A stretch of 11,115 bases of DNA. Source: an archaeon. Lineage in GTDB: Archaea; Nanobdellota; Nanobdellia; Pacearchaeales; GW2011-AR1. Of this stretch, positions 1 through 11,115 are shown piece after piece. The notes under the pieces were generated by a model. The model was given only the letters and a program-made list of their open reading frames with translations, was not told where the DNA came from and did not search any database. Within the stretch, counting starts at the first letter, position 1. Each line of letters begins with the position of its first letter. The position numbers and the translations under genes are program-made. The DNA lies in the NCBI GenBank assembly GCA_018694115.1, contig JABHNB010000009.1, positions 1 through 11,115 of the forward strand, read 5' to 3'.

Positions 1-81
1 CCACAAAAATACGTTATTTAAGTCTTGTCGACCACCTACTGGTGACATATCAATTGTAGATATTTTTTGTTTTGTATTCAT
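1..81 (-). CDS. Possible 5' end of a minus-strand gene running off the left edge. ATG at 81..79; the in-window translation is MNTKQKISTIDMSPVGGRQDLNNVFLW. Product unknown.
   Basis: Manual reverse-complement translation of 1-81 gives an open frame from an ATG to the window edge. It is not in the ORF track because it is partial. No TATA-like box lies at the expected -25 position (that DNA is GC-rich), so the call is weak. Confidence 0.2.
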   Translation of the reverse strand, partial: MNTKQKISTIDMSPVGGRQDLNNVFLW

Positions 82-100
82 AGCTTTTTCTAAAAAAAAT

Positions 101-190
101 CTGTCCCCGCGATTGGTCAAAAGGGTGCTACGCTCCCGCCGAGCAGGCGCATGTTTTGTCTAACTTGCGGGGTGCGATTCCCGTTTAGTT
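101..190 (+). ncRNA. GC-rich structured element, roughly 60% GC against about 35% background. Candidate small structured RNA or attachment-site-like element. It does not fold as a canonical tRNA.
   Basis: A 7-bp stem, ccccgcg (105-111) pairing with tgcgggg (166-172), includes a G-U pair that only works on the + strand. An internal hairpin cgcc-gagca-ggcg sits at 137-149. The word gcgatt is duplicated at 109-114 and 174-179. T54-loop and acceptor-stem searches failed on both strands. Confidence 0.25.
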
Positions 191-245
191 AGTCTTATGT
201 TTTATCGAGGCTGTTTGAGTTTATATAGTTTTTGTATTGGGGTTG

Positions 246-992
246 TCACTTCTTGGCAACCCTCCAAATAACTTCAAAATAATCTTTATAGTTTTCAGTA
301 ATCTCTTTACTTTCTATTGAAATAGCTAAGGGAAATTCCAAATTCCAGAGCGTAATCAAAACTTTATCACCATAAATAATAGTGCCACTGGGAGAGTGAT
401 GTGGAGCTGGGAAAAATTTAATCTCAGACAACTTTAATGAGGGGCCTTCTTCCACTCGTTCCTTTGATTCTGCACTCTGATTATATATGACCTTCATCTT
501 CATCTTTTGCTTAATTCTTTGCTTGTGCCAATGTTCTAAATAAAATGGAAGAAGTTTATATCCTACTCCCGAAGAGCCATAAACAAAAAACTCTTGAGGA
601 TTATCCTTTAGGATCCTAGACATTACGGTCTTCATTCCCTCTTTTCCCTCAAAGATCTCTATCTTAGCCTTCTTATCGGACAACCCTTGAATTTTTGAAA
701 GTTCGGGGATCAACTTTTTTATAGCTTCTTCCTCGTTGACTTTTTGCTCTTTAAACTTCTCTAATATTTTATCTGGTTCAATTGCCTGAAAGTATTTTTT
801 CCCATTCTTGATGGCATAGTTTACTAAGCCCTTCTCTATTAGGGCATCCATGTAATCATAGATTGAGGTTCTAAGTATACTTGTATGCTTCGCTAATTGA
901 TTCGCTAGACTTGGACCTTCTTTTAGAAGTGCGATATAAATTGCCGCTTCTCTTTCTCGTATACCAATCTTTTCTAAGTCTTTTAATTCCAT
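246..992 (-). CDS. TrmB-family transcriptional regulator, 248 aa.
   Basis: The N-terminus MELKDLEKIGIREREAAIYIALLKEGPSLANQLAKHTSILRTSIYDYMDALIEKGLVNYA matches the TrmB winged-HTH pattern (L..LGL...EA.VY..LL..G..TA.ELA....V.RS.VY..L..L..KGLV). It is a paralog of the ORF at 4623..5390; both end in ...AKK. Confidence 0.85.
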   Translation of the reverse strand: MELKDLEKIGIREREAAIYIALLKEGPSLANQLAKHTSILRTSIYDYMDALIEKGLVNYAIKNGKKYFQAIEPDKILEKFKEQKVNEEEAIKKLIPELSKIQGLSDKKAKIEIFEGKEGMKTVMSRILKDNPQEFFVYGSSGVGYKLLPFYLEHWHKQRIKQKMKMKVIYNQSAESKERVEEGPSLKLSEIKFFPAPHHSPSGTIIYGDKVLITLWNLEFPLAISIESKEITENYKDYFEVIWRVAKK

Positions 993-1008
993 ATTTAATT
1001 GAGGGGGA

Positions 1009-1070
1009 ATAACCTTATAAGTGTTGTGCTCTGGTCCACGACATAATTTTAAGTAGCTATTTTATCGAGC
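1009..1070. promoter_or_regulatory. Divergent promoter region with two TATA-like boxes. ttataag at 1015-1021 would serve the minus-strand TrmB gene (start 992). tattttat at 1058-1065 would serve the +strand operon (ATG 1086).
   Basis: Both boxes lie about 21-24 bp from their start codons, which fits archaeal TATA spacing (-26/-27) with short or absent leaders. Confidence 0.35.
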
Positions 1071-1085
1071 ATTATTAAGGACAAA

Positions 1086-1922
1086 ATGGAAAAACAGGAA
1101 AAAACGATGAAGTTCAAGGTTGGGGGAGCAGAGTTAATTGCAGAACTATCCAATGCGCGTGGATCTAGATCCTTTGTAATTCCTAAACAAACAATCCAGA
1201 GAGCCTCATATAGATTTTTGAACGACTCCGTGCATGCAAGATATTTAAATCACGTAATAGAAAACTATGATAATCCTCTTGCAAAGCAACATCTTATGGG
1301 GCTTAGTTCAGAGGATGGGGAAATTAGTTATACTACGCCATTTAGACTAATTGCACTTCAGGAATCTGGTTTATTAGGGGAAGAAAGATTGGCTACTGAA
1401 GGAGATTTATCTAACGTGGGAAGATATTTTCCGCCAGGTATTAGTAAAGAGAGGATAGATTCTGGAATCCTCTTGCGTGATTTTGATGGGCACTATACTC
1501 AAGATCAACAATCTGCAAAAATTTCTGCAAAAAACTTGATTACGCAGTTACGAGATCTTAATATAGATTTTAAGACAACTGAGCCCGGAAAAAGGCCAGG
1601 GTTCTGGAGAACTAGCCATTATAGATTTCTACCGTATAGAGTCTTAACACAAGAAGAGAATACAAATTCTCCGACAGGATTAATATTATCATTAAAAGAG
1701 GGAGTTTCAAAGGAAGAGTTGAGCGAGATTTCTCATCCGCAATTTCTCTATTGTGGACCGCAGACTGAAAGAAAGTTTGGATTACCTAGGACTGCAAGAT
1801 TAGAATATCATACAGATTTTGGGAAATTTTATCAAAATGCACTTGGAGATTTTTCTGATTCTGATTCATGTTCTAGAGTATTAGTTGTCTCTAATGGGGA
1901 ACTCACGAATAAGGCAAAATAA
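1086..1922 (+). CDS. Hypothetical protein, 278 aa. First gene of a coupled two-gene cassette. No family recognised.
   Basis: Long ORF with hydrophilic, protein-like composition. An alternative start at ATG 1107 (MKFKVGG...) is preceded by agga at 1096-1099. Stop TAA at 1920-1922. Confidence 0.7.
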   Translation: MEKQEKTMKFKVGGAELIAELSNARGSRSFVIPKQTIQRASYRFLNDSVHARYLNHVIENYDNPLAKQHLMGLSSEDGEISYTTPFRLIALQESGLLGEERLATEGDLSNVGRYFPPGISKERIDSGILLRDFDGHYTQDQQSAKISAKNLITQLRDLNIDFKTTEPGKRPGFWRTSHYRFLPYRVLTQEENTNSPTGLILSLKEGVSKEELSEISHPQFLYCGPQTERKFGLPRTARLEYHTDFGKFYQNALGDFSDSDSCSRVLVVSNGELTNKAK

Positions 1923-1923
1923 A

Positions 1924-2406
1924 ATGGAAACAAAAAAATCACTCACAAAACATCTGGGTGGCGAGTTAGAGTTAGATATTTCTACAATGGTTATCAAACT
2001 TGTCCGACAGTCTTGCGAAAAGGACGGAGAAGAAGATATCTATATAGAGAATAAAGAAGATTTGAAAGCAATTTTAAACTCTTATAGAGACCCTCTGGGA
2101 GAACTCACACTTAGGCAAAAAGGTTCTCGTCCGAAGAAAGCGGAAAGCTTGTTATGTGTCAAGACAAGTAAAAGACTTTTACCTTTGCGTTATGTTGGGG
2201 GTTCTTGGGACCCTGCCCAGTATATTGCAAGAATAGATCGTTTAAACTACGCAAACTGGGCTTCTGGATCTTTAGAAGATCCTACCGTAAGTCTATCATA
2301 TAAAGAATTTGTCCGATTGGATAGACCTCACTCTCTATATATTCAAGATATAAGAAAAATTTCCGTGGAAAGAAGCGAAGATAGGAAAAGAATTAGAAAG
2401 AATTAA
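1924..2406 (+). CDS. Hypothetical protein, 161 aa. Second gene of the coupled pair. The true start is probably ATG 1924 (METKKSL...) rather than the track start at 1885.
   Basis: ATG 1924-1926 lies 1 nt after the upstream TAA. That tight spacing implies an operon and translational coupling. The track's earlier start overlaps the upstream gene by 38 nt. Confidence 0.7.
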   Translation: METKKSLTKHLGGELELDISTMVIKLVRQSCEKDGEEDIYIENKEDLKAILNSYRDPLGELTLRQKGSRPKKAESLLCVKTSKRLLPLRYVGGSWDPAQYIARIDRLNYANWASGSLEDPTVSLSYKEFVRLDRPHSLYIQDIRKISVERSEDRKRIRKN

Positions 2407-2422
2407 TAGCTTTTAAGAAACC

Positions 2423-2767
2423 CTAATCCTTATACATCCACAACACTAAAGGCATAACCGCCTCACTCTTCAACCCCTTAACCATCTTCATTAAATCCTC
2501 GTGGCTTCTACAGAACATCAATCTATATGAAAACGAAGATCTTTTTTCTTTCAGTATTGGGAATTCTTCTACAATTTCTCTTTTTAATCTTAGCATATTC
2601 CATGATTGAAAACTCTCTGCATAAGATATTTTACCCTCGATATCTATTACCGTTTTTGGTGTCAGTGGTTTTCTTTCCATAATGGATTCCCACCACCTCT
2701 TCGTTAATAGTATTAAGATACAGTTTTTATTAAATGCTCGCGTGGTGATTCTTTGACTATAGTGCAA
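2423..2767 (-). CDS. Small hypothetical protein, 114 aa as tracked. A more plausible start is ATG 2680..2678 (MERKPLTPKTVIDIEGK..., about 85 aa).
   Basis: It is the only long ORF in an otherwise gene-free 390-bp interval. The first 29 codons run into the Lrp promoter/TATA region, which favours the internal start. No family recognised. Confidence 0.4.
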   Translation of the reverse strand: MHYSQRITTRAFNKNCILILLTKRWWESIMERKPLTPKTVIDIEGKISYAESFQSWNMLRLKREIVEEFPILKEKRSSFSYRLMFCRSHEDLMKMVKGLKSEAVMPLVLWMYKD

Positions 2768-2770
2768 AGA

Positions 2771-2778
2771 TTTAAAAG
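2771..2778 (+). promoter_or_regulatory. TATA-like box tttaaaag for the Lrp-like gene, preceded by purine-rich aaaga (BRE-like).
   Basis: The box ends 22 bp before ATG 2800, consistent with a leaderless or short-leader archaeal promoter. Confidence 0.4.
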
Positions 2779-2799
2779 ATAGTCCCGTTTTTGTCTTAA

Positions 2800-3792
2800 A
2801 TGAAAGATTTTGCGGAATCCAACCTTTCTTTGAGGGAAAGGAAAGTGTTGAAGGAACTTGATGTGAATGCTCGGCAGGGTATTTCTTCGATTGGGAGTAA
2901 GTTGAAGATTTCGAAGCAGGCGGTTAATTATCATATTGAGAAGATGATTCGGAAGGGTTTTATTAAGGAGTTTATTACTTATTTTGATACGAATAAGTTG
3001 GGGTATACGTTTTATAATATTGTGATTAAGTTGAAGTATACGACGAAGGAAGATCGGAAAAAAATTGTTGATAAATTGAAGGGGATTTCTAATGTGGTTT
3101 GGGTTGCTTCTTTTAGGGGCGAGTATCAGATGATTGTTTCGATTTTGGCTAAGGATGTTGGAGAGTTTAGTTTTTATCTCGAGGAGGTTTTGCATTCGTT
3201 AAAGGGGAAGCTGTTGGATTATAATTTCTTTATTGTGATTAGTGCTTCGCAGTTGGGTTATAAGAAAATTCATAGTGGGACTAAGAGTAAATATAATTAT
3301 GATGCTATGATTGGGCACAAGGACTTGGCTCGTCTTTCGGGGAATGATTTGAAGGTGTTGAAGATTATTGCAAATAATGCGAAGATGTCGATTGTTGATA
3401 TTGCGAAGAGGACTGGGTTGACTATTGAGAAGGCGAGGTATTCTTTGAAGAAGATGGAAAAGGAGAAGATTATTCAGGGATATAAGCCGTTGGTGGATGT
3501 TGCTCGGTTGGGTTATCTTTGGCATGTTATGTTTTTGAGATTGAAGTCTTCTAGTGCGGCGGAGAAGGAGAAGATGATTAGTTTTTTGAAGAGTTTCCCC
3601 GAGGTTTTTTATGTTGTTAGGGGAGTTGGTAATTGTAATTTGATGGTTGAGTTTCAGACGAAGACTTTGGATGAGTTTGAGAGGGTTAAGGATAAGGTTT
3701 CTAATGAGTTTAGTGGATTGATTGCCGACGAGAAGACAGTACAGTTGATTGAGGAGCATAAGTGTACTTATTTTCCCGGGAGTTTGGGGTAG
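2800..3792 (+). CDS. Lrp/AsnC-family regulator with two tandem HTH+RAM modules in one 330-aa chain.
   Basis: Module 1: LRERKVLKELDVNARQGISSIGSKLKISKQAVNYHIEKMIRKGFIKEF. Module 2: LSGNDLKVLKIIANNAKMSIVDIAKRTGLTIEKARYSLKKMEKEKIIQGY. Each is followed by a roughly 80-aa RAM-like segment. The coding strand has a strong G>C skew. Confidence 0.8.
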   Translation: MKDFAESNLSLRERKVLKELDVNARQGISSIGSKLKISKQAVNYHIEKMIRKGFIKEFITYFDTNKLGYTFYNIVIKLKYTTKEDRKKIVDKLKGISNVVWVASFRGEYQMIVSILAKDVGEFSFYLEEVLHSLKGKLLDYNFFIVISASQLGYKKIHSGTKSKYNYDAMIGHKDLARLSGNDLKVLKIIANNAKMSIVDIAKRTGLTIEKARYSLKKMEKEKIIQGYKPLVDVARLGYLWHVMFLRLKSSSAAEKEKMISFLKSFPEVFYVVRGVGNCNLMVEFQTKTLDEFERVKDKVSNEFSGLIADEKTVQLIEEHKCTYFPGSLG

Positions 3793-3852
3793 GGTTATTT
3801 ATATGATTAAATTTGTTGGTGCGATTAGTTAGTAATATTTTATATCTCCATT

Positions 3853-4530
3853 TTACGGCCTGTTATGACAATGCGGTCGGTGGTGATGGTCTATTTGTTT
3901 CAAATGCCCTGCACTCCATTGGTAATTGTTTCCGTCTGGGGATTGGACATAGATTTTATCAAGATCAGCTTCTCTGATGTTTTTTGCTCCCCGAAGATCT
4001 GTATTAACAAGTCTCGCCCATTGAAACTCGGCCCCGTCAAGATTAGCCCCTCTAAGATCGGCCCCGTCAAGATTCGTACCCAAAAATAGCGCATATTTAA
4101 GATTTGCATTTCTAAGATTTGCATCTCTAAGGTTTGCGTCATAAAAATGTGTCTTTGTAAGATTTGCTTTGTAAAAGTTTGCTCCCCTAAGGTTTGCGGC
4201 AAAAAAGTCTGCCCCATAAAGATTTGCTCCCCTAAAGTTTGCTTCTTCAATGCTTGCGTTTCTAAATTTTGTATTATTGTAGCTTACATCCGGATCCTTA
4301 CAGTCTGTTGGTTCTAGGTTTGCAAAGGAAAAATTAGCTCCATTTAGATTTGCTCCCCAAAAATTTTTTGTAAAGTTTTTCTTTTCAAAGTTTGCTCCTT
4401 CGAGATTTGCTCCCCTAAAGTTTGTCCCTGTAAGCTCAATATCATTTACCTTTCTGAAATCTGTTCCTCGAAGATCAGCTCCTTCAAGATTTGAACGGGG
4501 TTCAATTTTGTATGTTTTTTTTATTTCCAT
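3853..4530 (-). CDS. Pentapeptide-repeat protein, 225 aa.
   Basis: Repeated A(N/D)L(x)x units throughout (ANLEGANFEKKNF, GANLNGANFSFANL, ANLRDANLRNANLKYALFLGTNLDGADLRGANLDGAEF). The C-terminus is His/Cys-rich (HHHRPHCH). Confidence 0.85.
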   Translation of the reverse strand: MEIKKTYKIEPRSNLEGADLRGTDFRKVNDIELTGTNFRGANLEGANFEKKNFTKNFWGANLNGANFSFANLEPTDCKDPDVSYNNTKFRNASIEEANFRGANLYGADFFAANLRGANFYKANLTKTHFYDANLRDANLRNANLKYALFLGTNLDGADLRGANLDGAEFQWARLVNTDLRGAKNIREADLDKIYVQSPDGNNYQWSAGHLKQIDHHHRPHCHNRP

Positions 4531-4588
4531 TTTTTTATTTTAAGCAGTTATTTGTAACTACTTCTTAATAGTCATACATAAATAACAA

Positions 4589-4621
4589 TACTTAAGTACT
4601 CTCTACTATACAATATAGTAG
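4589..4621. promoter_or_regulatory. Two palindromes in the divergent promoter, ending 1 nt before the TrmB-like ATG (4623). TACTTAAGTA is at 4589-4598. CTACTATA-caa-TATAGTAG is at 4603-4621. Candidate TrmB operator sites.
   Basis: Both are perfect inverted repeats, each built on TACT...AGTA half-sites. The second overlaps the expected TATA/TSS for the 4623 gene. Confidence 0.4.
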
Positions 4622-4622
4622 T

Positions 4623-5390
4623 ATGGAAGAAAGATTTGAGGAAATTTTGACAAAAATTGGTTTAACGGTTCCGGAATCACGAACGTATCTTGGGTTGTTG
4701 AAATTAAAAGAAAGTCAGACTGGGCAACTTTGTAAGTTAACGGGAATAGCGTCTTCGAATATTTATAAGGTTCTTGATAGTTTAGTTGAGAGGGGTCTTG
4801 CTGGTTACAAGTTGAAGAATAATGTTAAGGTGTTTATGGCGTCGCCTCCTGAAATTTTAAAGGAGCTTTTTGTGGAACGTGAGAGGAAGTTGAGAGAAGA
4901 AGAAAAAGAGGTTGCTGATATGATTAAAAATTTGAAGAAGCCAAATGATGCTCCAGCGCCTTATGCTAATTACAAGTATTTTGAGGGGATTTCTGGGGCG
5001 AAGGCGATGTGGCTTGAATTTGCGGATTATGATTCTAAGGATGATTATGCTGTGGCGAAGATTTATAGTCAGAAGAAAGAGGCGTATGGAGCTATTGTCG
5101 GGTTTTATGATGAGTGTCATAAGGTTTATGGGAAATTGGGGCGCCGATATAAAATAATTCTTCCGTTTGAGGACGAGGCTCTAGGGAAGAAGAGAAAAAA
5201 GGTCGGTAAGGGGTTTGAGATTAAATATGCTGATTTTAAAAATGAGGCTGAGTGGGGTGTGAGGGGTGATAAACTTTATATTCAGACAACTACTGGAAAG
5301 TTGCCCGTTTCTTTCTTAATCAATAATGCGAAAATTGCTAAGACGTTTGAGCAGGTTTTTGATGATGCTTGGAGGCATGCCAAGAAGTGA
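4623..5390 (+). CDS. TrmB-family transcriptional regulator, 255 aa.
   Basis: N-terminus MEERFEEILTKIGLTVPESRTYLGLLKLKESQTGQLCKLTGIASSNIYKVLDSLVERGLAGY matches the TrmB winged-HTH. The C-terminal half aligns with the paralog at 246..992. Confidence 0.85.
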   Translation: MEERFEEILTKIGLTVPESRTYLGLLKLKESQTGQLCKLTGIASSNIYKVLDSLVERGLAGYKLKNNVKVFMASPPEILKELFVERERKLREEEKEVADMIKNLKKPNDAPAPYANYKYFEGISGAKAMWLEFADYDSKDDYAVAKIYSQKKEAYGAIVGFYDECHKVYGKLGRRYKIILPFEDEALGKKRKKVGKGFEIKYADFKNEAEWGVRGDKLYIQTTTGKLPVSFLINNAKIAKTFEQVFDDAWRHAKK

Positions 5391-5409
5391 TCTTTAATCA
5401 ACAACCTTC
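5388..5409. repeat. Left copy of a roughly 23-bp direct repeat (tgatctttAATCAACAACCTTC). It overlaps the convergent stop codons of the TrmB gene and the cupin gene.
   Basis: An identical 14-mer AATCAACAACCTTC occurs at 5396-5409 and 6303-6316. Flanking similarity (tgatcttt versus tgattattc) gives about 20/23 identity with one indel. Confidence 0.4.
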
Positions 5410-5735
5410 TGTTGTTCGGGCGTCCACTTCGGAGCGTTAATCAAGGACAATAATAACTTATCACCCTTAATATAATATTTCTCTCCTTGTTTTAAAGAAT
5501 ATGAATCGCCCTCGTTGATTTGGAAGTCGCCTTTTTCGGAGTGAATTGTTCCTGAGCCTGAAATTACGAAGAACATTCCTTCGCATTCTGTGTTTACTAC
5601 TCTTTTTTCTGTTGGGTAGCGTCCGTCAATTGATGTTGTTGCGTAGCTTAGTCTGTTCGTTGGGTGGTCGTGTTCGTATACTGTGCAATCCTTGGAGCCT
5701 TCGTGAACTCTTGCGTTTTGTTTTTTGATTAGCAT
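5394..5735 (-). CDS. Small cupin-fold protein, 113 aa.
   Basis: The sequence has a double-strand beta-helix pattern: YEHDHP...GRYPTEKRVVNTECEGMFFVISGSGTIHSEKGDFQINEGDSYSLKQGEKYYI. This is the G(X)5HXH...E...G...G...H cupin-like spacing. A TATA-like ttaaataa sits at 5756-5765 on the minus strand, 21-30 bp upstream. Confidence 0.6.
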   Translation of the reverse strand: MLIKKQNARVHEGSKDCTVYEHDHPTNRLSYATTSIDGRYPTEKRVVNTECEGMFFVISGSGTIHSEKGDFQINEGDSYSLKQGEKYYIKGDKLLLSLINAPKWTPEQQKVVD

Positions 5736-5868
5736 TGGATTATATGGATTAGGAATTATTTAAGGATTGTGGGGGTATGCTTCATGAGGTTGATAGTATG
5801 ATTAGTTAGGGTTGCGGGAGCTTCAGATAGGAGATTGGGTGGGTTGGGAAGTATGAGTTTTTGAAAGT

Positions 5869-6213
5869 TTAAGCTACGCGTTTTCTAAGTTCTTTTAGCC
5901 TAGAAGCATGTGGTTCTGGAATGTGCGGAGAAGACCCCTCTCCGTTGACATATCCATTAAGAACTGTTATTCTGGCAGCCATTCTTTCTTTGTAGTCTTC
6001 CTCTCCTGCTTGCTCATAGTGATCTTTTGCCTTGGTCATTATTGGGATTAATGTTCCTTGAACCCATTCTGGCGATGGATTATTGTCCCAAACTTTCATA
6101 TGGGCCATGCTTGCAATTTGACTTAAATCTTCATCACTTTTTACTCCTATTGATTCATCTAATAATTGTGCTAATTCTTCTACGTTTTTGTATGCTGTCT
6201 CTGAGTGTCTCAT
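5869..6213 (-). CDS. Hypothetical protein, 114 aa, acidic and hydrophilic.
   Basis: Protein-like composition (MRHSETAYKNVEELAQLLDESIG...). A TATA-like ttatataatttt at 6231-6243 sits about 24 bp upstream. The overlapping +ORF 6027..6296 looks spurious. Confidence 0.55.
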   Translation of the reverse strand: MRHSETAYKNVEELAQLLDESIGVKSDEDLSQIASMAHMKVWDNNPSPEWVQGTLIPIMTKAKDHYEQAGEEDYKERMAARITVLNGYVNGEGSSPHIPEPHASRLKELRKRVA

Positions 6214-6293
6214 GTGTTGAATTAAATAGAGAGGCTTATATAATTTTGGGTGGATGTTATAATTGTTATGGTTTTGTGTATATGAAGACTGGT

Positions 6294-6316
6294 TGATTAT
6301 TCAATCAACAACCTTC
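6294..6316. repeat. Right copy of the roughly 23-bp direct repeat (tgattattcAATCAACAACCTTC).
   Basis: See 5388..5409. This copy encodes ...KVVD* on the minus strand, exactly as the cupin gene does. Confidence 0.4.
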
Positions 6317-6357
6317 CATTTCTCCACTAATTTTATAAGCCCATTCTCTTTATCTTA
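6301..6357 (-). pseudogene. Probable severed 3' fragment of a second cupin-like gene. It encodes DKENGLIKLVEKWKVVD* and is bounded upstream by an in-frame TAA at 6355-6357.
   Basis: Manual minus-strand translation. It aligns to the C-terminus of the cupin at 5394..5735 (GDKLLLSLINAPKW...KVVD*) with conserved DK, an L/I pattern, KW and an identical KVVD-stop. DNA identity is 14/14 at the stop-proximal end. Confidence 0.3.
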
Positions 6358-6432
6358 ATCATGCCAAAATTACTAACAAAATCCAACTATCTTTTGGGAA
6401 TTAATTAGAAATAATAATAGTCTGTCCTCCAC

Positions 6433-6469
6433 GTCACCTACCCCATATATACATATTATATAGGGTGAC
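6433..6469. other. Imperfect inverted repeat flanking an alternating-AT core: GTCACCtaCCCC-ATATATACATATTATATA-GGGTGAC.
   Basis: gtcacc (6433-6438) is the reverse complement of ggtgac (6464-6469). cccc and ggg flank an 18-bp (AT)n-like core. It lies in the 320-bp non-coding gap between the ATPase 3' end and the cupin-remnant boundary. Confidence 0.35.
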
Positions 6470-6510
6470 TCTTTTGCTATTTCCCAGAATTTTATCGACG
6501 ACGAACACAG

Positions 6511-6530
6511 AAAAATGCCCCAAAAAGCCA
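6511..6530 (-). terminator. T-run terminator candidate for the minus-strand operon (minus-strand ggcTTTTTggggcaTTTTTct).
   Basis: Two T5 runs on the transcribed strand begin 4 nt after the ATPase stop (TAG at 6536..6534). Archaeal termination typically uses oligo-T tracts. Confidence 0.35.
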
Positions 6531-6533
6531 TGT

Positions 6534-9473
6534 CTATTTTTGGGCGTTTTTAGCGAATTTTACAACTCTGCCTAATTTCGCTCTAAGATATCTTGGATCA
6601 ATTGCGACACCAAAATTCTTGTATTTTTTTATCTTATTTCTATTAGTCACCACAAAAAACCACTTCTCATAATTCTTATTTAGAGACCCTACCTTTTCTC
6701 TCAATTGATTGGGAGATTTCTCCAAAACAGTCCCCGTCTCAATCTCAATTGCATACTCCTTGCCCGCAATCTTGAAAACAACGTCTGGCTTTTTAGTTGT
6801 ATACAGTTGTGTCTCAATTCCGTTCTTCTCTAAAAACTCTGAGATATTATGGGTCATAAAAAGGTGCATCAAACTTTCATTGTGTCTTGGTTGCAAAAGA
6901 AAGTCCTCCATCTTATCTGTCAGTAAACTTTTGTATTTCATAATTTTATATCCTTCGCCTAAAAGAAGCTCAACTTCATCCTTTTTCAAATCTTTCTTGT
7001 GAAAAAATCTTTTGTTTGGATTAATTCTTATGTCAACTTTTTTCTGTGGCTTTTTATTTTTCTTAATTATATTTAACTCATCAGGATTAGTTGTAATTAA
7101 TTTGTGTTCTGCAGGCGATGCAATAACTTTCAATTCTGAATGGTCATCTTCCATCATCAATAGGCCCTCTCCAATATTCGAAGTTAACAGATGGACTCTT
7201 TCTCCTTCGCTTAGATGAAAGGTCTTGCAAATATTATCAATGACTGCGGGCTTTTGTTTCATTAGAACTGTATATGCAGAATTTGCAAGGACCGATTTCC
7301 CGGCTTTAGAATCCAATAGCCCTTCAACTTCTTGATTGATTAAGAGAAGTCCAAGATTAAACTTTCTACAAGTTTTTACAATCTCAAAAATATATCCTGC
7401 TTCTTCTGTTTTGGAAAGTAGAGACCAGGCTTCATCAATTAATAATATCTTTCTGTCTAGATTAGATTTCATTTTCATATAGATATAATCTAAGACTAGA
7501 AACATGACTGAGGGTTTAACTTGTGAAGGGAGATTTCCTATGTCAAAGCAAACTAAGTTATTATCGAAATCTAAATTAGTTTGTCTATTCATGAAGCTAA
7601 ATACTCCGTTGACATACATCTCAAGACGGCTAGATAGACTACTAATTGTGGCTTGCTCTAATTTCGGTGAGCCAACTCTCATTTCCATTAAACTTTGCAT
7701 TAAATCCCCTAAGATTGGGGGCTTATTGTTCCAGCTATCTGGGTTGTTTGTAATTCCCTTTAATTTATAGGTTCTACTTATTGCTTTATCGATTAAGGCT
7801 CGCTGAATGTCAGTTAAATCCCCGAGCATGACCTTCATGAGGTCTATTAGAGATAATCGCTTCTCTATGTAGTCGTGGCCCATCAAATCTAGCGGATTGA
7901 TGATTGTCTCGGAATCTCTGGAAAGATCGATTCTCTGCCCTTTAAAATGCGACACAAGGCTACCATATTCCCCCTGTGGGTCGATTACCATAACCTTTGT
8001 ACCGTTGAGTAGATACCTTGTTATTAGTAGCTTACAAAAATATGATTTACCTCCACCCGATTGGGCCAGAACTATCCCGTTTGGGTTTGATAAATTAAAT
8101 ATGTCTTTTATGATTGGAATGTTGTTCTTGTTTAGTCCAAGCCACACCCCAGTTTCATCAAATTTTGAGAAGGATGAAGTGAATGGAAAGAAGGCAGAAA
8201 GAGCAGGAGTTGTTATATTCCTATTTATTCCTAGAAAGTTTTTTGCCAATGGTAGACACGACTTGAGTCCTTCCAGCATTCTGAAAATTGGCTTTCTTGG
8301 GATTATCAACAAGGAGTTTAATTCGGATTCTATTTTTCTTGTTAGTAGGTTCAGTTCTTTTAGGCTGTCTGCTCGGCAGTTGATGTATAAACTAACATCA
8401 AATAATTTTTCGTTTCCTTTTTGCAAGTTGGACAGGATCGCTCTTGTATCCTGATATTTGATTTCTAGGCTTGGATTAAGTTGGTTCTTTAGTTTTGCTG
8501 CGTATAGATCTGCTCTTTGTTTTTGTAATTCTCGATTTAGAAGAATTAGGGTTTGTTCTATTTGATGAGGGTTAATGTGTAATGAAAAATCAAAATCTCC
8601 AGAACAGCTTACAAGTTTGTCAAGAAATCCATTTTCAACTGATCTAGGATAACCGTAAGCATAGATTATTTTGTGGAATTTCCCATCGATGTCTAGGAAA
8701 TCTGGAGAGTTTTTTATTTTGTCGGGATAAATATCTGATTTTTTATTATTGAATATTTTAATGAAGATTCTTTTTAGTTTATTATTGTGTAATCTAGAAG
8801 TCTTGAGATTCAAGCTATGGAGTCTATCTTCGCATAGTTTTATCTGAATATTTATGTCGCTTGTTTCGGGAATGACCACGTAGAAATTTCGATTCATTGC
8901 ACTATTGTCTTCAACTAAACTTTTCATATGATTTTTATAAGAGTCAAACATTTCCACATGTTCATCTTTGACCATCTTATCTTTTAGGATGTTCAAATAA
9001 GAATTCAAATTGAGAGTTTCGGTTGTCATTAAAATTTGAACTGGAAAATCTATTGAGTTGAGAAACTTTTGGAAAGCATAGCCTATGGCTTCTTTTTCCT
9101 TTAAGGTTTTAATAGAAAAATTTATTGATTCTACTTTCACAACTGCAATCCTTTTTTTATTATGATGAATTAAATTATCTTTGATTTCTCCCAAGACTAG
9201 AGCCTTTTCTAACTTTTCTTTTGTATCTAGATTTCTAGTTTTTAACCAGGTATACCAGTTTTTCAGATGAGTTGATAGATCAAAAAACATAAATCCTACC
9301 GCTAGAACAGATGGAATTGATGCGAGAAAAATACGAACTACGAGGCTTGCCTGTATTTTAAACAATAAAGGAAAAATAATTGGAAAGAATATCATGGCAT
9401 AAGCTATTTGTCCGAATGTAAGTCCAAAAACAATTTTCTCTTTATATTCTAATTGCTGGGGTATCTCATACAT
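6534..9473 (-). CDS. Membrane-anchored VirB4/TrbE/CedB-like DNA-transfer ATPase with an extra C-terminal nuclease-fold-like domain, 979 aa.
   Basis: N-terminal hydrophobic helices (aa 14-65, IVFGLTFGQIAYAMIFFPIIFPLLF...VLAVGFMFF). Walker A VLAQSGGGKSYF (aa 468-479, nt about 8040-8070). Walker B ILLIDEAWSLL (aa 676-686, nt about 7420-7450) with the VirB4-type DEAW. C-terminal aa about 835-979 (nt 6537-6971) carry FLEKNGI...KPDVVF...GKEYAIEIE, resembling Hjc / PD-(D/E)xK motif spacing. Confidence 0.85.
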   Translation of the reverse strand: MYEIPQQLEYKEKIVFGLTFGQIAYAMIFFPIIFPLLFKIQASLVVRIFLASIPSVLAVGFMFFDLSTHLKNWYTWLKTRNLDTKEKLEKALVLGEIKDNLIHHNKKRIAVVKVESINFSIKTLKEKEAIGYAFQKFLNSIDFPVQILMTTETLNLNSYLNILKDKMVKDEHVEMFDSYKNHMKSLVEDNSAMNRNFYVVIPETSDINIQIKLCEDRLHSLNLKTSRLHNNKLKRIFIKIFNNKKSDIYPDKIKNSPDFLDIDGKFHKIIYAYGYPRSVENGFLDKLVSCSGDFDFSLHINPHQIEQTLILLNRELQKQRADLYAAKLKNQLNPSLEIKYQDTRAILSNLQKGNEKLFDVSLYINCRADSLKELNLLTRKIESELNSLLIIPRKPIFRMLEGLKSCLPLAKNFLGINRNITTPALSAFFPFTSSFSKFDETGVWLGLNKNNIPIIKDIFNLSNPNGIVLAQSGGGKSYFCKLLITRYLLNGTKVMVIDPQGEYGSLVSHFKGQRIDLSRDSETIINPLDLMGHDYIEKRLSLIDLMKVMLGDLTDIQRALIDKAISRTYKLKGITNNPDSWNNKPPILGDLMQSLMEMRVGSPKLEQATISSLSSRLEMYVNGVFSFMNRQTNLDFDNNLVCFDIGNLPSQVKPSVMFLVLDYIYMKMKSNLDRKILLIDEAWSLLSKTEEAGYIFEIVKTCRKFNLGLLLINQEVEGLLDSKAGKSVLANSAYTVLMKQKPAVIDNICKTFHLSEGERVHLLTSNIGEGLLMMEDDHSELKVIASPAEHKLITTNPDELNIIKKNKKPQKKVDIRINPNKRFFHKKDLKKDEVELLLGEGYKIMKYKSLLTDKMEDFLLQPRHNESLMHLFMTHNISEFLEKNGIETQLYTTKKPDVVFKIAGKEYAIEIETGTVLEKSPNQLREKVGSLNKNYEKWFFVVTNRNKIKKYKNFGVAIDPRYLRAKLGRVVKFAKNAQK

Positions 9474-9474
9474 C

Positions 9475-10290
9475 TTACGACATCACTCCTGCAACTTGCT
9501 TAACACTAGCGACAGTGTTCGCCGCCTTGAATATGACGAATAGGATTAGAAATAAAGTTCCTAAATTGGCTAATGTAAAGGCCCCGATCATGACTACAAT
9601 TTTCATATTACTAAAAACTTCCAACTCTACGAATTTTGATGAGGCTAGAAATACGATTGCATAAAAGAACGGTAGGGCCATCACGACGAATAGATAATTC
9701 ATGATTAGTTTTCCGTATTGATTTAGTGGGTCGATGAAGTAGAAGAAAATTCCTAGGGCAAAAAAGACGACCCCCATCCCTACACAAAGATATCTAAGGA
9801 CTAGAAAAATTAGGGTGACAACTAGGGTTAATATGTATGGTATAATCAAAACTAATTCTAATCCGATGTTGCTAACGCCATCCATTGTTACCAGGAAGAA
9901 CTCGTCTCCAATCATGTTGAAAATTACTGTCGTTACCGATGATATTACTTCGAGGATTAGCTTGTATAAGAAAAAACTTGTTTGGATTAATACCATCATG
10001 AGGATCGTATTTGCCAAACTTCTCTTTGCCTTTTCTCTTTGTTCCGGGGAATGTCCTGCCAATAAGAATCTGAATCCTACAATTAAGAGAAGTATACCAT
10101 AAAATAAAGATAAGATGTAAACTATAATTGACCAGACCCCTGCGAAGATTTCGACGTTGACTGGTTGAGTCAATAGGTTGTCGATCATGCTAAGCAGGGG
10201 CCTAACTGGCAGATTTAAAATATAAATTACAAACTCAAAAAACTTCTCAACAAGACAGGCTCCGAGATTGGTTATTCCGCAAGAACTCAT
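9475..10290 (-). CDS. Polytopic integral membrane protein, 271 aa with about 7 predicted TM helices. VirB6/TrbL/CedA-like channel-component candidate.
   Basis: Hydrophobic throughout, with short polar loops. The stop lies 1 nt before the ATPase ATG (9473). The start overlaps the upstream stop (ATGA at 10287-10290). The assignment is by topology and operon context, not by motif. Confidence 0.65.
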   Translation of the reverse strand: MSSCGITNLGACLVEKFFEFVIYILNLPVRPLLSMIDNLLTQPVNVEIFAGVWSIIVYILSLFYGILLLIVGFRFLLAGHSPEQREKAKRSLANTILMMVLIQTSFFLYKLILEVISSVTTVIFNMIGDEFFLVTMDGVSNIGLELVLIIPYILTLVVTLIFLVLRYLCVGMGVVFFALGIFFYFIDPLNQYGKLIMNYLFVVMALPFFYAIVFLASSKFVELEVFSNMKIVVMIGAFTLANLGTLFLILFVIFKAANTVASVKQVAGVMS

Positions 10291-11115
10291 AGTAAACTAA
10301 ATGAAAGATAATATTTCTTCAGGAAGCTGTAGATTATGTATCCGAAGAAACTAATAGATGAAAGTTCTTTTAGGAATACCTCGTTTTTCTCGTCGGTGAC
10401 ACTAATAAATTTCTTTACCTTTCTTGTATTTAGTTGGGCCTCAATTCTGTTCTCGTCTTTTACTGCTTTGAATTCTGCGAAATCCTCTGCTAAGATATTT
10501 TTTCCTGCATAAGTTAAGTTTAGCTCTATGCCTTTTGGGAAAATCTCAATTAGGATAGTTTCATTTTCGTAATAATACAGTTGATCTGCTTCAATTTCAA
10601 AATCAACTTTGCTATAACTTAAATCGCAACCCCTTGAGATGCTTCCGAAGTGATTAAAGAGTTTTATTTTGCAGTTTGAAGCGTCTTTTACGACGAACTC
10701 GAATTTGTTTGCGGATTCATCAACATGAATATTTTGGACTTTTGTATTTTCAATTCTTTCCGCTTGGAGTGTTAGAATGTAGTGAGGCAAAGTGTAGTTG
10801 AGTTTGTAGATGTAATTTGTTCTTTGGTATAATGAGTTGGTGAAGCTTAGCTCTAATGCGCTGACATTATTTGTTTTTAGATATCCTTCTATGTTATCGC
10901 TGTATTGATTTATTATTTTGAAAGAACTTTCTGTGCTTGAATTATGTAGCTTTGCGTTAACAGTGTCTGAAATTTTTACTGTGTGGGTTACGTAGTCTCG
11001 ATAGTCATATCTACATCTGCTTTCTCTCCATCGATAATGTTCTACTTTATACCTAACTTTAATTTCTAATTCTGCTGTTAGAACTACATCTTCGCTGTTT
11101 GCTACGAAACTTGTT
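10287..11115 (-). CDS. Partial CDS (5' end beyond the window) for a non-globular, beta-rich protein with a C-terminal hydrophobic anchor (ISFFGYIIYSFLKKYYLSFSLL). First gene of the transfer operon within the window.
   Basis: The ORF-track entry 10287..10790 begins at a TTG. Manual translation shows the same frame stays open with no stop up to 11114 (...TSFVANSEDVVLTAELEIKVRYKVEHYRWRESRCRYDYRDYVTHTVKISD...), so the gene continues off the window. Confidence 0.6.
   Translation of the reverse strand, partial: TSFVANSEDVVLTAELEIKVRYKVEHYRWRESRCRYDYRDYVTHTVKISDTVNAKLHNSSTESSFKIINQYSDNIEGYLKTNNVSALELSFTNSLYQRTNYIYKLNYTLPHYILTLQAERIENTKVQNIHVDESANKFEFVVKDASNCKIKLFNHFGSISRGCDLSYSKVDFEIEADQLYYYENETILIEIFPKGIELNLTYAGKNILAEDFAEFKAVKDENRIEAQLNTRKVKKFISVTDEKNEVFLKELSSISFFGYIIYSFLKKYYLSFSLL

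Follow-up and report, generated by a model that had tools for sequence, protein, structure and literature searches.

What apparatus, if any, is encoded by three consecutive membrane-linked genes on the minus strand of an archaeal contig, and what might it carry? The genes lie between positions 6534 and 11115 of an 11,115-nt stretch of contig JABHNB010000009.1 (assembly GCA_018694115.1), the whole of which is called the window here. An earlier note on this DNA had read them as a compact conjugation-like or Ced-like transfer unit of an ATPase, a polytopic membrane protein and an anchored surface protein. They belong to a compact module resembling a type IV secretion system (T4SS), in which a VirB2 pilin, a protein of predicted VirB6 fold and VirB3-VirB4 parts are combined with a channel-proximal domain of predicted nuclease fold; the module is mostly chromosomal and is linked to DNA-methylation genes.

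Results

The genes are the distal part of a five-gene operon

The three open reading frames (ORFs) lie where the earlier note had placed them, at 6534..9473, 9475..10290 and, running open off the end of the window, from 10287. Both junctions are also as it described: a 4-nt ATGA overlap ('ctATGAgt' at 10290-10287) joins the surface-protein and VirB6-like genes, and a single nucleotide (G at 9474, 'TAA g ATG') separates the VirB6-like gene from virB4. Judged by sequence conservation these are real genes and not chance ORFs, since the ATPase has at least 773 homologues in the database and the 271-aa membrane protein has 276. Eleven public contigs carry the identical 979-aa protein sequence.

The window was extended with a 22.9-kb stretch from a metagenome-assembled genome labelled 'archaeon' (GCA_018674515.1, JABGZY010000014.1), the longest stretch read, which is called L001 here and in which window position x falls at 19474-x. 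Relatives were collected by scanning one genome per GTDB species, which found 169, and the best 80 (46-84% identity) were fetched; cluster architecture was mapped across loci from ORFs and hidden Markov models. The flank censuses, within 7-10 kb on either side, covered immediate neighbours and those flanking proteins that have 330 aa or more. On L001 the unit is larger than the three genes first proposed, because the operon runs past 11115 into the rest of the surface-protein gene, a VirB2 pilin gene and a zinc-ribbon ORF. The operon comprises five genes, of which those in the window are the distal ones; their order is zinc ribbon, pilin, surface protein, VirB6-like protein, VirB3-VirB4-nuclease:

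6534..9473, minus strand: VirB3-VirB4-nuclease fusion gene, 979 aa (ORF and profile matches)
9475..10290, minus strand: gene for the VirB6-like polytopic membrane protein, 271 aa
10287..11115, minus strand: 3' part of the surface-protein gene (C-terminal 275 aa of 453 aa; full ORF L001 7826-9187)
L001 7524-7862, outside the window: VirB2/TrbC pilin gene, 113 aa (PF18895 and PF04956 matches)
L001 7405-7566, plus strand on L001, just outside the window: zinc-ribbon ORF (CxxC...CxxC), 53 aa

The zinc-ribbon ORF stands immediately upstream of the pilin gene and overlaps it; since about 40 loci keep it, the operon probably starts with this ORF. Scanning for sigma-70 promoters and intrinsic terminators gave no signal above shuffled sequences, these being bacterial models that are not applicable to archaea.

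The ATPase is a VirB4 protein with a fused VirB3 module

On its profile matches the 979-aa protein is a genuine VirB4. The best score comes from NCBIfam NF045971 (VirB4-like, CD1110 family), with 327.8 bits over aa 243-775 where 325 is the cutoff; NF045975 (Mbov_0397, the VirB4 model of a Mycoplasma integrative and conjugative element, ICE) reaches 304.9 bits over aa 22-793, under its own cutoff, and the TraC and VirB4_CagE models match with lower scores. Pfam adds P-loop_TraG (4e-24), DUF87 (6e-14) and PF19044 (85.4 bits). The closest solved structure in a sequence search is the C-terminal domain of Thermoanaerobacter VirB4 (PDB 4AG5, 1.2e-30). Full-length homologues come from Pacearchaeota and Nanoarchaeota (57-100% identity), and plasmid-borne relatives from Firmicutes, Actinobacteria and Spiroplasma are 24-34% identical over aa ~100-800. 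The ATPase thus appears closest to the monoderm FATA-type VirB4 proteins and not to the HerA/CedB clade, as judged by best profiles and plasmid matches and not by a tree. Of the VirB4/HerA-clade assignment made earlier, the VirB4 half is borne out (NF045971, P-loop_TraG, 4AG5) and the HerA/CedB half is not.

The nucleotide-binding motifs, and a module preceding them, map as follows:

8043..8066, minus strand: Walker A, AQSGGGKS (aa 470-477), from translation
7425..7445, minus strand: Walker B, LLIDEAW (aa 677-683), from translation
9204..9473, minus strand: VirB3/PrgI-like N-terminal module (aa 1-90), two transmembrane (TM) helices

The GGGKS and DEAW motifs recognized earlier are thus correct (SGGGKS, aa 472-477; LLIDEAW, aa 677-683), and G473, G475, K476 and S477 of Walker A and D680, E681 and W683 of Walker B are invariant in 12 diverse homologues. 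The N-terminal module escaped the earlier note, as did the C-terminal domain described below. The Pfam PrgI model matches aa 4-80 with 24.7 bits, below its cutoff of 27; in about 10 relatives the module is a separate ORF, and the stand-alone ORF of locus L089 scores 30 bits, above the cutoff. Hydropathy peaks at aa 14-62 and the TM segments span aa ~16-64, and with two N-terminal TM helices the rest of the ATPase should therefore be cytoplasmic.

VirB4 ends in a predicted nuclease domain

Beyond the ATPase core the protein carries a further domain, whose assignment is based on invariant residues and a structure model:

6537..7031, minus strand: predicted restriction-endonuclease-fold (PD-(D/E)xK) domain, aa 815-979
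Residues within it: E866 (6876-6878), H870, D897 (6783-6785), E910 (6744-6746), E912 (6738-6740)

In an alignment of 33 diverse homologues E866, H870, D897, E910, E912 and G914 are invariant and K927 is nearly so. In the AlphaFold model of the domain (predicted local distance difference test score, pLDDT, 94.4) the chain adopts the alpha-beta-beta-beta-alpha-beta core known from restriction-endonuclease-like enzymes, and the invariant residues fall on helix 1 and on strands 2 and 3. Compared with the catalytic signature, E866, D897 and E910-x-E912 are present, with Glu standing where the PD-(D/E)xK signature has Lys. This ExE in place of ExK recalls BamHI-type sites. Modelling thus identifies a restriction-endonuclease (PD-(D/E)xK) fold, and the domain is a predicted nuclease. 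Profile searches with aa ~800-979 gave no match except a weak one to CoiA_nuc, and a PDB sequence search with the nuclease-domain profile returned nothing meaningful.

The VirB4-nuclease fusion is present in all copies of the module and was seen nowhere outside the module's group; every plasmid VirB4 relative lacks the domain, none extending past residue 800. The domain family as a whole comprises 740 sequence clusters, mostly proteins of 150-390 aa, one of which lies 7.7 kb away on the same contig, where a gene of no assigned function precedes it:

L001 20666-21541, plus strand, beyond window position 1: 291-aa membrane-anchored paralogue of the nuclease-fold domain
L001 19470-20672, plus strand: 400-aa gene preceding the paralogue gene, no function assigned

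In the paralogue an acidic linker connects two N-terminal TM helices to a copy of the nuclease-fold domain; homologues of the 400-aa gene stand close to the T4SS-like cluster at 14 further loci. A 42-nt sequence with a GTCACC...GGTGAC palindrome lies ~60 nt past the virB4 stop (window 6433-6474; L001 13000-13041), and a second copy, 88% identical, ~60 nt past the stop of the 291-aa paralogue (L001 21603-21644), so the 3' end of virB4 and its downstream sequence appear to have been duplicated together. The repeat is lineage-specific and folds no better than shuffled sequences. A 52-aa ORF (6373..6531, minus strand) two bases past virB4 was rejected as a further member: it is probably not a gene, because it has no homologues beyond the identical contigs and overlaps this repeat.

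Channel, pilin and surface protein

The 271-aa protein is polytopic, as had been proposed, with ~6 TM segments in place of the roughly seven first counted. Its structure model has a single strong structural match, VirB6/TrwI, which supports a VirB6 fold and its designation as a VirB6-like protein; the first TM hairpin resembles a VirB2-type pilin. Sequence profiles, which the earlier note had suggested as a check, do not recover the relationship: none of 57 family members matches the VirB6/TrbL Pfam models at E<=0.01, and a PDB sequence search with the family profile found no match. A few of its database homologues carry a precomputed PF19590 TrbL_3 tag. The earlier note had tied its proposal beforehand to VirB4 similarity of the ATPase and to TM helices in this protein, and both were found.

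The pilin has a leader peptide and two hydrophobic helices and matches the TrbC and T4SS_pilin profiles, scoring 53.9 bits with PF18895 and 39.3 bits with PF04956, in each case above the cutoff. Searched against PDB sequences, the pilin-family profile matched no solved pilin, the CedA1 and TedC chains included.

The surface protein is beta-rich and anchored, as read from the part inside the window; the full 453-aa ORF has an N-terminal signal peptide in addition to the C-terminal hydrophobic anchor. Homologues occur in 58 of 88 loci. Four states are seen: a long protein of 410-470 aa, a short one of 120-140 aa, no such protein at all, and a fusion of ~675 aa in which it precedes the VirB6-like protein; seven loci have such Rosetta-stone fusions. 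The short form consists of the N-terminal signal, a two-Cys motif and the C-terminal anchor, to which the long form adds a central beta-rich insert of ~340 aa. This variation in form among loci fits an accessory, fast-evolving ectodomain attached to the channel, which could serve as an adhesin or specificity factor. A surface component is thus present and anchored, as claimed; it is an accessory and variable member, and the true pilin lies outside the window. No family in Pfam, NCBIfam or PADLOC matches the surface protein, and a precomputed 'DUF8186' tag was discarded when profile searches did not reproduce it.

Distribution, gene order and copy number

The module occurs at no fewer than 169 loci, labelled nearly without exception Pacearchaeota, Woesearchaeota, Nanoarchaeota or unclassified archaeon, on contigs of up to 1.56 Mb. 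The common order (zinc ribbon, pilin, optional surface protein, VirB6-like protein, VirB3-VirB4-nuclease) is kept down to 46% VirB4 identity. In six loci (L025, L050, L051, L055, L058 and L078) 1-3.4 kb of extra genes stand between the virB6-like gene and virB4, and the coupling is broken.

Several genomes hold two or three copies, sometimes within ~40-50 kb of one another in a small genome: JAIORZ010000011.1 (L011, L014), CAZETU010000003.1 (L023, L033), JAHWHZ010000001.1 (L050, L067), JAAOYJ01 (L009, L070, L072) and a 965-kb Pacearchaeota contig (J4226_01670, _01815, _01925). The VirB4 proteins of such genomes are 51-76% identical, which therefore indicates old paralogy or repeated acquisition and not recent duplication.

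Some contigs carry other labels (Methanosarcinales, 'bacterium', Babeliales, Bacteroides, Cloacimonadota, Gammaproteobacteria or Patescibacteria; among them L031, L039, L040, L048, L057, L077, L082 and L090). These non-DPANN contigs are likely mis-binned or mislabelled; the context of the 'Patescibacteria' contig bearing the module gives no taxonomic clue. It is speculation that the 37 'Patescibacteria' VirB4 proteins reported to cluster with archaeal homologues (PMC12102498) might have the same cause. No relative of the module was found among IMG/VR viral contigs.

Neighbouring genes and signs of mobility

On L001 the operon is flanked by a divergent unit:

L001 7033-7209, minus strand on L001: divergent ribbon-helix-helix (RHH) gene, 58 aa, heading a type I restriction-modification (R-M) system
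L001 4254-6998, minus strand on L001: divergent operon following the RHH gene

An RHH gene heads such a divergent operon in 26 loci (L007 7685-8504 and L008 7718-8540 among them), usually with a methylase and, in the window's lineage, with the type I R-M system. In ~31 of 53 loci the first gene upstream encodes a DNA methylase or an R-M protein, and one N6/N4 methylase of ~215 aa recurs in at least 14 loci with 67-79% identity. The L026 homologue of this methylase (6323-6994, plus strand) lies inside the operon, between virB6 and virB4. Downstream neighbours and the larger flanking proteins are likewise rich in R-M and defence genes.

The earlier note saw no relaxase, VirD4 or integrase in the window; profile searches agree, and none was found within 10 kb on L001. 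Extending the contig past 11115, as it advised, brought to light the pilin gene and none of these three. Among the families listed by the censuses, which cover flanks and not whole genomes, there is no relaxase or coupling-protein family. Tyrosine recombinases lie within 7 kb in roughly 15 of ~80 loci (15 integrase hits), for instance in L007 and, twice, in L089. No tRNA gene or flanking repeat was found on the 22.9-kb stretch of L001.

The cluster is slightly AT-richer than the DNA to its left (34.6% GC at 6534-11115 against 37.3% at 1-6533), as the earlier note had remarked. Its suggestion of a foreign origin does not hold on composition, because the complete cluster (35.1% GC) equals the mean of the whole 22.9-kb locus (35.3%), and downstream synteny is shared with L008. 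A 113-aa cupin-like gene recurs downstream in L008 (57% VirB4 identity) and in L009, and a double-AsnC regulator in L008; the downstream synteny is kept in relatives despite variable R-M genes inserted between. Two downstream ORFs of 114 and 113 aa were considered as module members and rejected, being separated from virB4 by a 320-nt gap and showing no co-occurrence with it.

Farther along the window, GC skew reaches +0.49 to +0.57 at 2750-3800, over the gene for a 330-aa double AsnC/Lrp regulator (2800..3792, plus strand). This regulator and a small neighbouring gene (2423..2767) recur near the cluster in other loci; a 186-aa ORF antisense to it (3199..3759) has no family match and is probably spurious. 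A 225-aa pentapeptide-repeat protein (3853-4530, minus strand; Pfam 5e-40), HetL- and Qnr-like, is encoded by DNA with 15-nt periodic repeats and has no homologue in the related loci.

Comparison with known systems

The architecture is the minimal one that the earlier note had recognized as Ced/Ted-like: a VirB4 ATPase, a VirB6-like channel and a pilin or surface component, with neither relaxase nor coupling protein. Ced and Ted, compared here by architecture and description and not by sequence, are likewise chromosomal and relaxase-less and combine a VirB2-like pilin, a VirB6-like protein and a membrane-anchored VirB4-type ATPase in an archaeal monoderm envelope (PMC9905601, PMC11868833, PMC11823120); with such a triad they import DNA (PMC9905601, PMC11868833). 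However, Ced (Sulfolobales, Aeropyrum) and Ted (Thermoproteales) belong to Thermoproteota and the present module to Nanoarchaeota, and the ATPase of the latter is a full VirB4 nearest to FATA-type profiles, whereas CedB is HerA-like. Unlike Ced and Ted, the DPANN module has no CedD/TedD-like second ATPase nearby; its VirB3 is fused to VirB4, its VirB4 carries the predicted PD-(D/E)xK domain at the C-terminus, and zinc-ribbon and surface genes are added. It is tied to methylase and R-M genes, Ced and Ted to genes of the DNA-damage regulon.

The chromosomes of Patescibacteria (candidate phyla radiation, CPR) retain a relaxase-less T4SS with VirB2-like pilins, without which these cells cannot grow epibiotically (PMC12102498, PMC12857230). 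The likeness extends to ultrasmall episymbiotic cells, a widespread chromosomal system, a VirB4 related to the FATA class of mating-pair formation (MPF) systems, VirB2-like pilins, VirB3/PrgI and VirB6; because the relaxase is mostly absent, a non-conjugative role has been inferred for the CPR systems (PMC12102498). These are bacterial, however, and their loci add TrsD, VirB8, a VirB1-like protein and often a type IV coupling protein (T4CP). The CPR survey found no VirB3-VirB4 fusions, which most DPANN members have, and it reports no nuclease fusion (PMC12102498).

Systems with CD1110- or Mbov_0397-family VirB4 give the best profile and plasmid matches to the DPANN VirB4 and share with it a PrgI-type VirB3; in contrast to them, the DPANN module has no relaxase, T4CP, PrgL/VirB8 or cell-wall hydrolase nearby, and it has a VirB2 pilin, which is unusual in monoderm systems. 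The MPF-FATA accessory set (PrgL/VirB8-like protein, cell-wall hydrolase, T4CP) was not found in the conserved cluster. The nanohaloarchaeal SPEARE proteins also tie a DPANN VirB4-like ATPase to a surface or adhesion function and are proposed T4SS parts acting on the host (PMC10266531), but SPEARE is a giant single protein with a VirB4/TraG-like domain, ~75 Ig-like domains and no nuclease domain (PMC10266531), whereas the present module is a compact multi-gene operon.

No published description of the module was found in the literature covered, which omits most subscription journals; neither the module nor a VirB4-nuclease fusion appears in PMC9905601, PMC11868833, PMC11823120, PMC12102498, PMC12857230 or PMC10266531. 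Other DPANN literature mentions 'type II or IV secretion genes' only in passing (PMC10936187).

Discussion

The five-gene operon would best be explained as encoding a minimal monoderm apparatus derived from conjugation (T4SS-like), a conserved chromosomal feature of the DPANN groups Pacearchaeota and Woesearchaeota, that moves and processes DNA; we give this reading a probability of roughly 0.55. A membrane-anchored VirB4 hexamer would energize extraction of the VirB2 pilin and its polymerization on a VirB6 platform, giving a pilus or conduit that could extend to a partner cell or to the host; the variable surface protein would serve for adhesion or specificity. The VirB6 channel would let nucleic acid through, most probably DNA, which at the cytoplasmic face would be cut or processed by the PD-(D/E)xK domains tethered to the VirB4 ring. 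The adjoining operon of RHH and DNA-methylase or R-M genes would label the cell's own DNA and shield it. As to direction, import is favoured, as a Ced/Ted-like uptake or salvage of foreign DNA by a biosynthetically reduced cell, because of the analogy with Ced and Ted and the nutritional dependence of these organisms. Shared downstream genes, GC equal to the contig mean, the lack of tRNA genes and flanking repeats on L001 and the lack of an IMG/VR match support the chromosomal character.

Several considerations weigh against this explanation. The module is known from genes alone; homology, the fused nuclease and the R-M neighbours are all that its substrate (DNA, RNA or protein) and direction are deduced from. 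The R-M richness could simply mark a variable genomic island, and two or three divergent copies per genome with tyrosine recombinases nearby fit mobile elements equally well. A coupling ATPase or relaxase could sit beyond the inspected 7-10 kb on either side, as CedD does in Sulfolobales.

These same points lead to the strongest competitor, in which the module is the transfer (MPF) core of integrated conjugative or mobilizable DPANN elements that export their own DNA, the fused nuclease being a relaxase-like nicking or cutting enzyme and the methylases and R-M genes cargo or anti-restriction functions. The nearest matches of VirB4 do come from conjugative monoderm systems (ICEs of the CD1110 and Mbov_0397 families, plasmids of Firmicutes, Actinobacteria and Spiroplasma), ICEs typically carry R-M and defence genes as cargo, the RHH gene shows a weak likeness to a NikA-type relaxosome accessory protein (E 0.05), and the divergent copies and the recombinases of L007, L089 and the other integrase hits of the censuses would be expected. 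No archaeal conjugative element has a recognizable relaxase, so a different nuclease is to be expected in them (PMC9905601, PMC12857230). Yet integrase, tRNA and flanking direct repeats are missing from the 22.9-kb stretch, the flanks show no recurring coupling ATPase or replication gene, GC is not deviant and the conserved part measures only ~6 kb. Housekeeping and regulator genes downstream remain syntenic across distant relatives with R-M genes inserted between, which therefore looks like a stable locus beside an insertion hotspot. On this balance export by a mobile element is the less likely explanation, yet one to be taken seriously.

If the cargo is not DNA, the module might serve interaction with the host as a secretion conduit or adhesive pilus, handling protein effectors or nutrients other than DNA (RNA, metabolites), with a nuclease-like domain that is regulatory, RNA-directed or inactive. 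Pacearchaeota and Woesearchaeota are ultrasmall putative episymbionts whose bacterial counterparts retain chromosomal relaxase-less T4SS with VirB2-like pilins (PMC12102498, PMC12857230), a Patescibacteria representative has been reported to feed on host RNA via putative T4SS pili (bioRxiv 10.64898/2026.06.21.733656), and the ectodomain of the surface protein is as variable as host recognition would predict. No effector-like genes are conserved in the cluster, however, and the invariant, metal-binding-type residues of a DNA-nuclease fold point to DNA, as does the methylase linkage with its one case inside the operon; a role in host interaction or secretion is accordingly unlikely. Least probable is a membrane-associated defence that destroys incoming DNA with a HerA/VirB4-type ATPase, a nuclease and a methylase, as in MADS or HerA-nuclease systems. 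The ATPase domain does match PADLOC mad8 (methylation-associated defence, 2.4e-15), and a fusion of translocase and PD-(D/E)xK domain resembles type I/III restriction enzymes; but the mad8 match is limited to the P-loop domain and reaches 54.8 bits against 327.8 bits for the VirB4 profile, no other PADLOC defence model matches any component, and known cytoplasmic defence systems make no use of a VirB2 pilin, a VirB6-fold channel or a VirB3 anchor.

Taking the favoured reading, a chromosomal apparatus that moves and processes DNA, one step further, we tentatively suggest that pacearchaeal and woesearchaeal cells may run a conjugation-type pilus in reverse as an organ of feeding and gene acquisition, in which DNA of the host or a neighbour would enter by way of the VirB2 pilus and VirB6 channel, a VirB4 ring would thread it into a ring of tethered PD-(D/E)xK nucleases, and a divergently encoded, RHH-controlled methylase or R-M system would mark self; the idea is conjectural and more probably wrong than right. 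If true, it would amount to a restriction enzyme built onto a DNA-import gate, an archaeal counterpart of the essential T4SS of Patescibacteria, and relaxase-less DNA transfer in archaea would have its first candidate for a DNA-processing enzyme.

Archaeal DNA transfer without a recognizable relaxase is an open problem (PMC9905601, PMC12857230), and the invariant nuclease-fold domain fused to the VirB4 motor offers a candidate, open to testing, for the DNA-processing step that is missing. Genes now annotated 'DUF87' or 'hypothetical' gain names. The tight linkage to DNA methylases suggests a methylation-aware handling of translocated DNA. Because a leaner T4SS is found in at least 169 DPANN loci, often in several copies per genome of roughly 1 Mb, the results suggest that both ultrasmall radiations, DPANN and Patescibacteria, independently rely on machines derived from conjugation.

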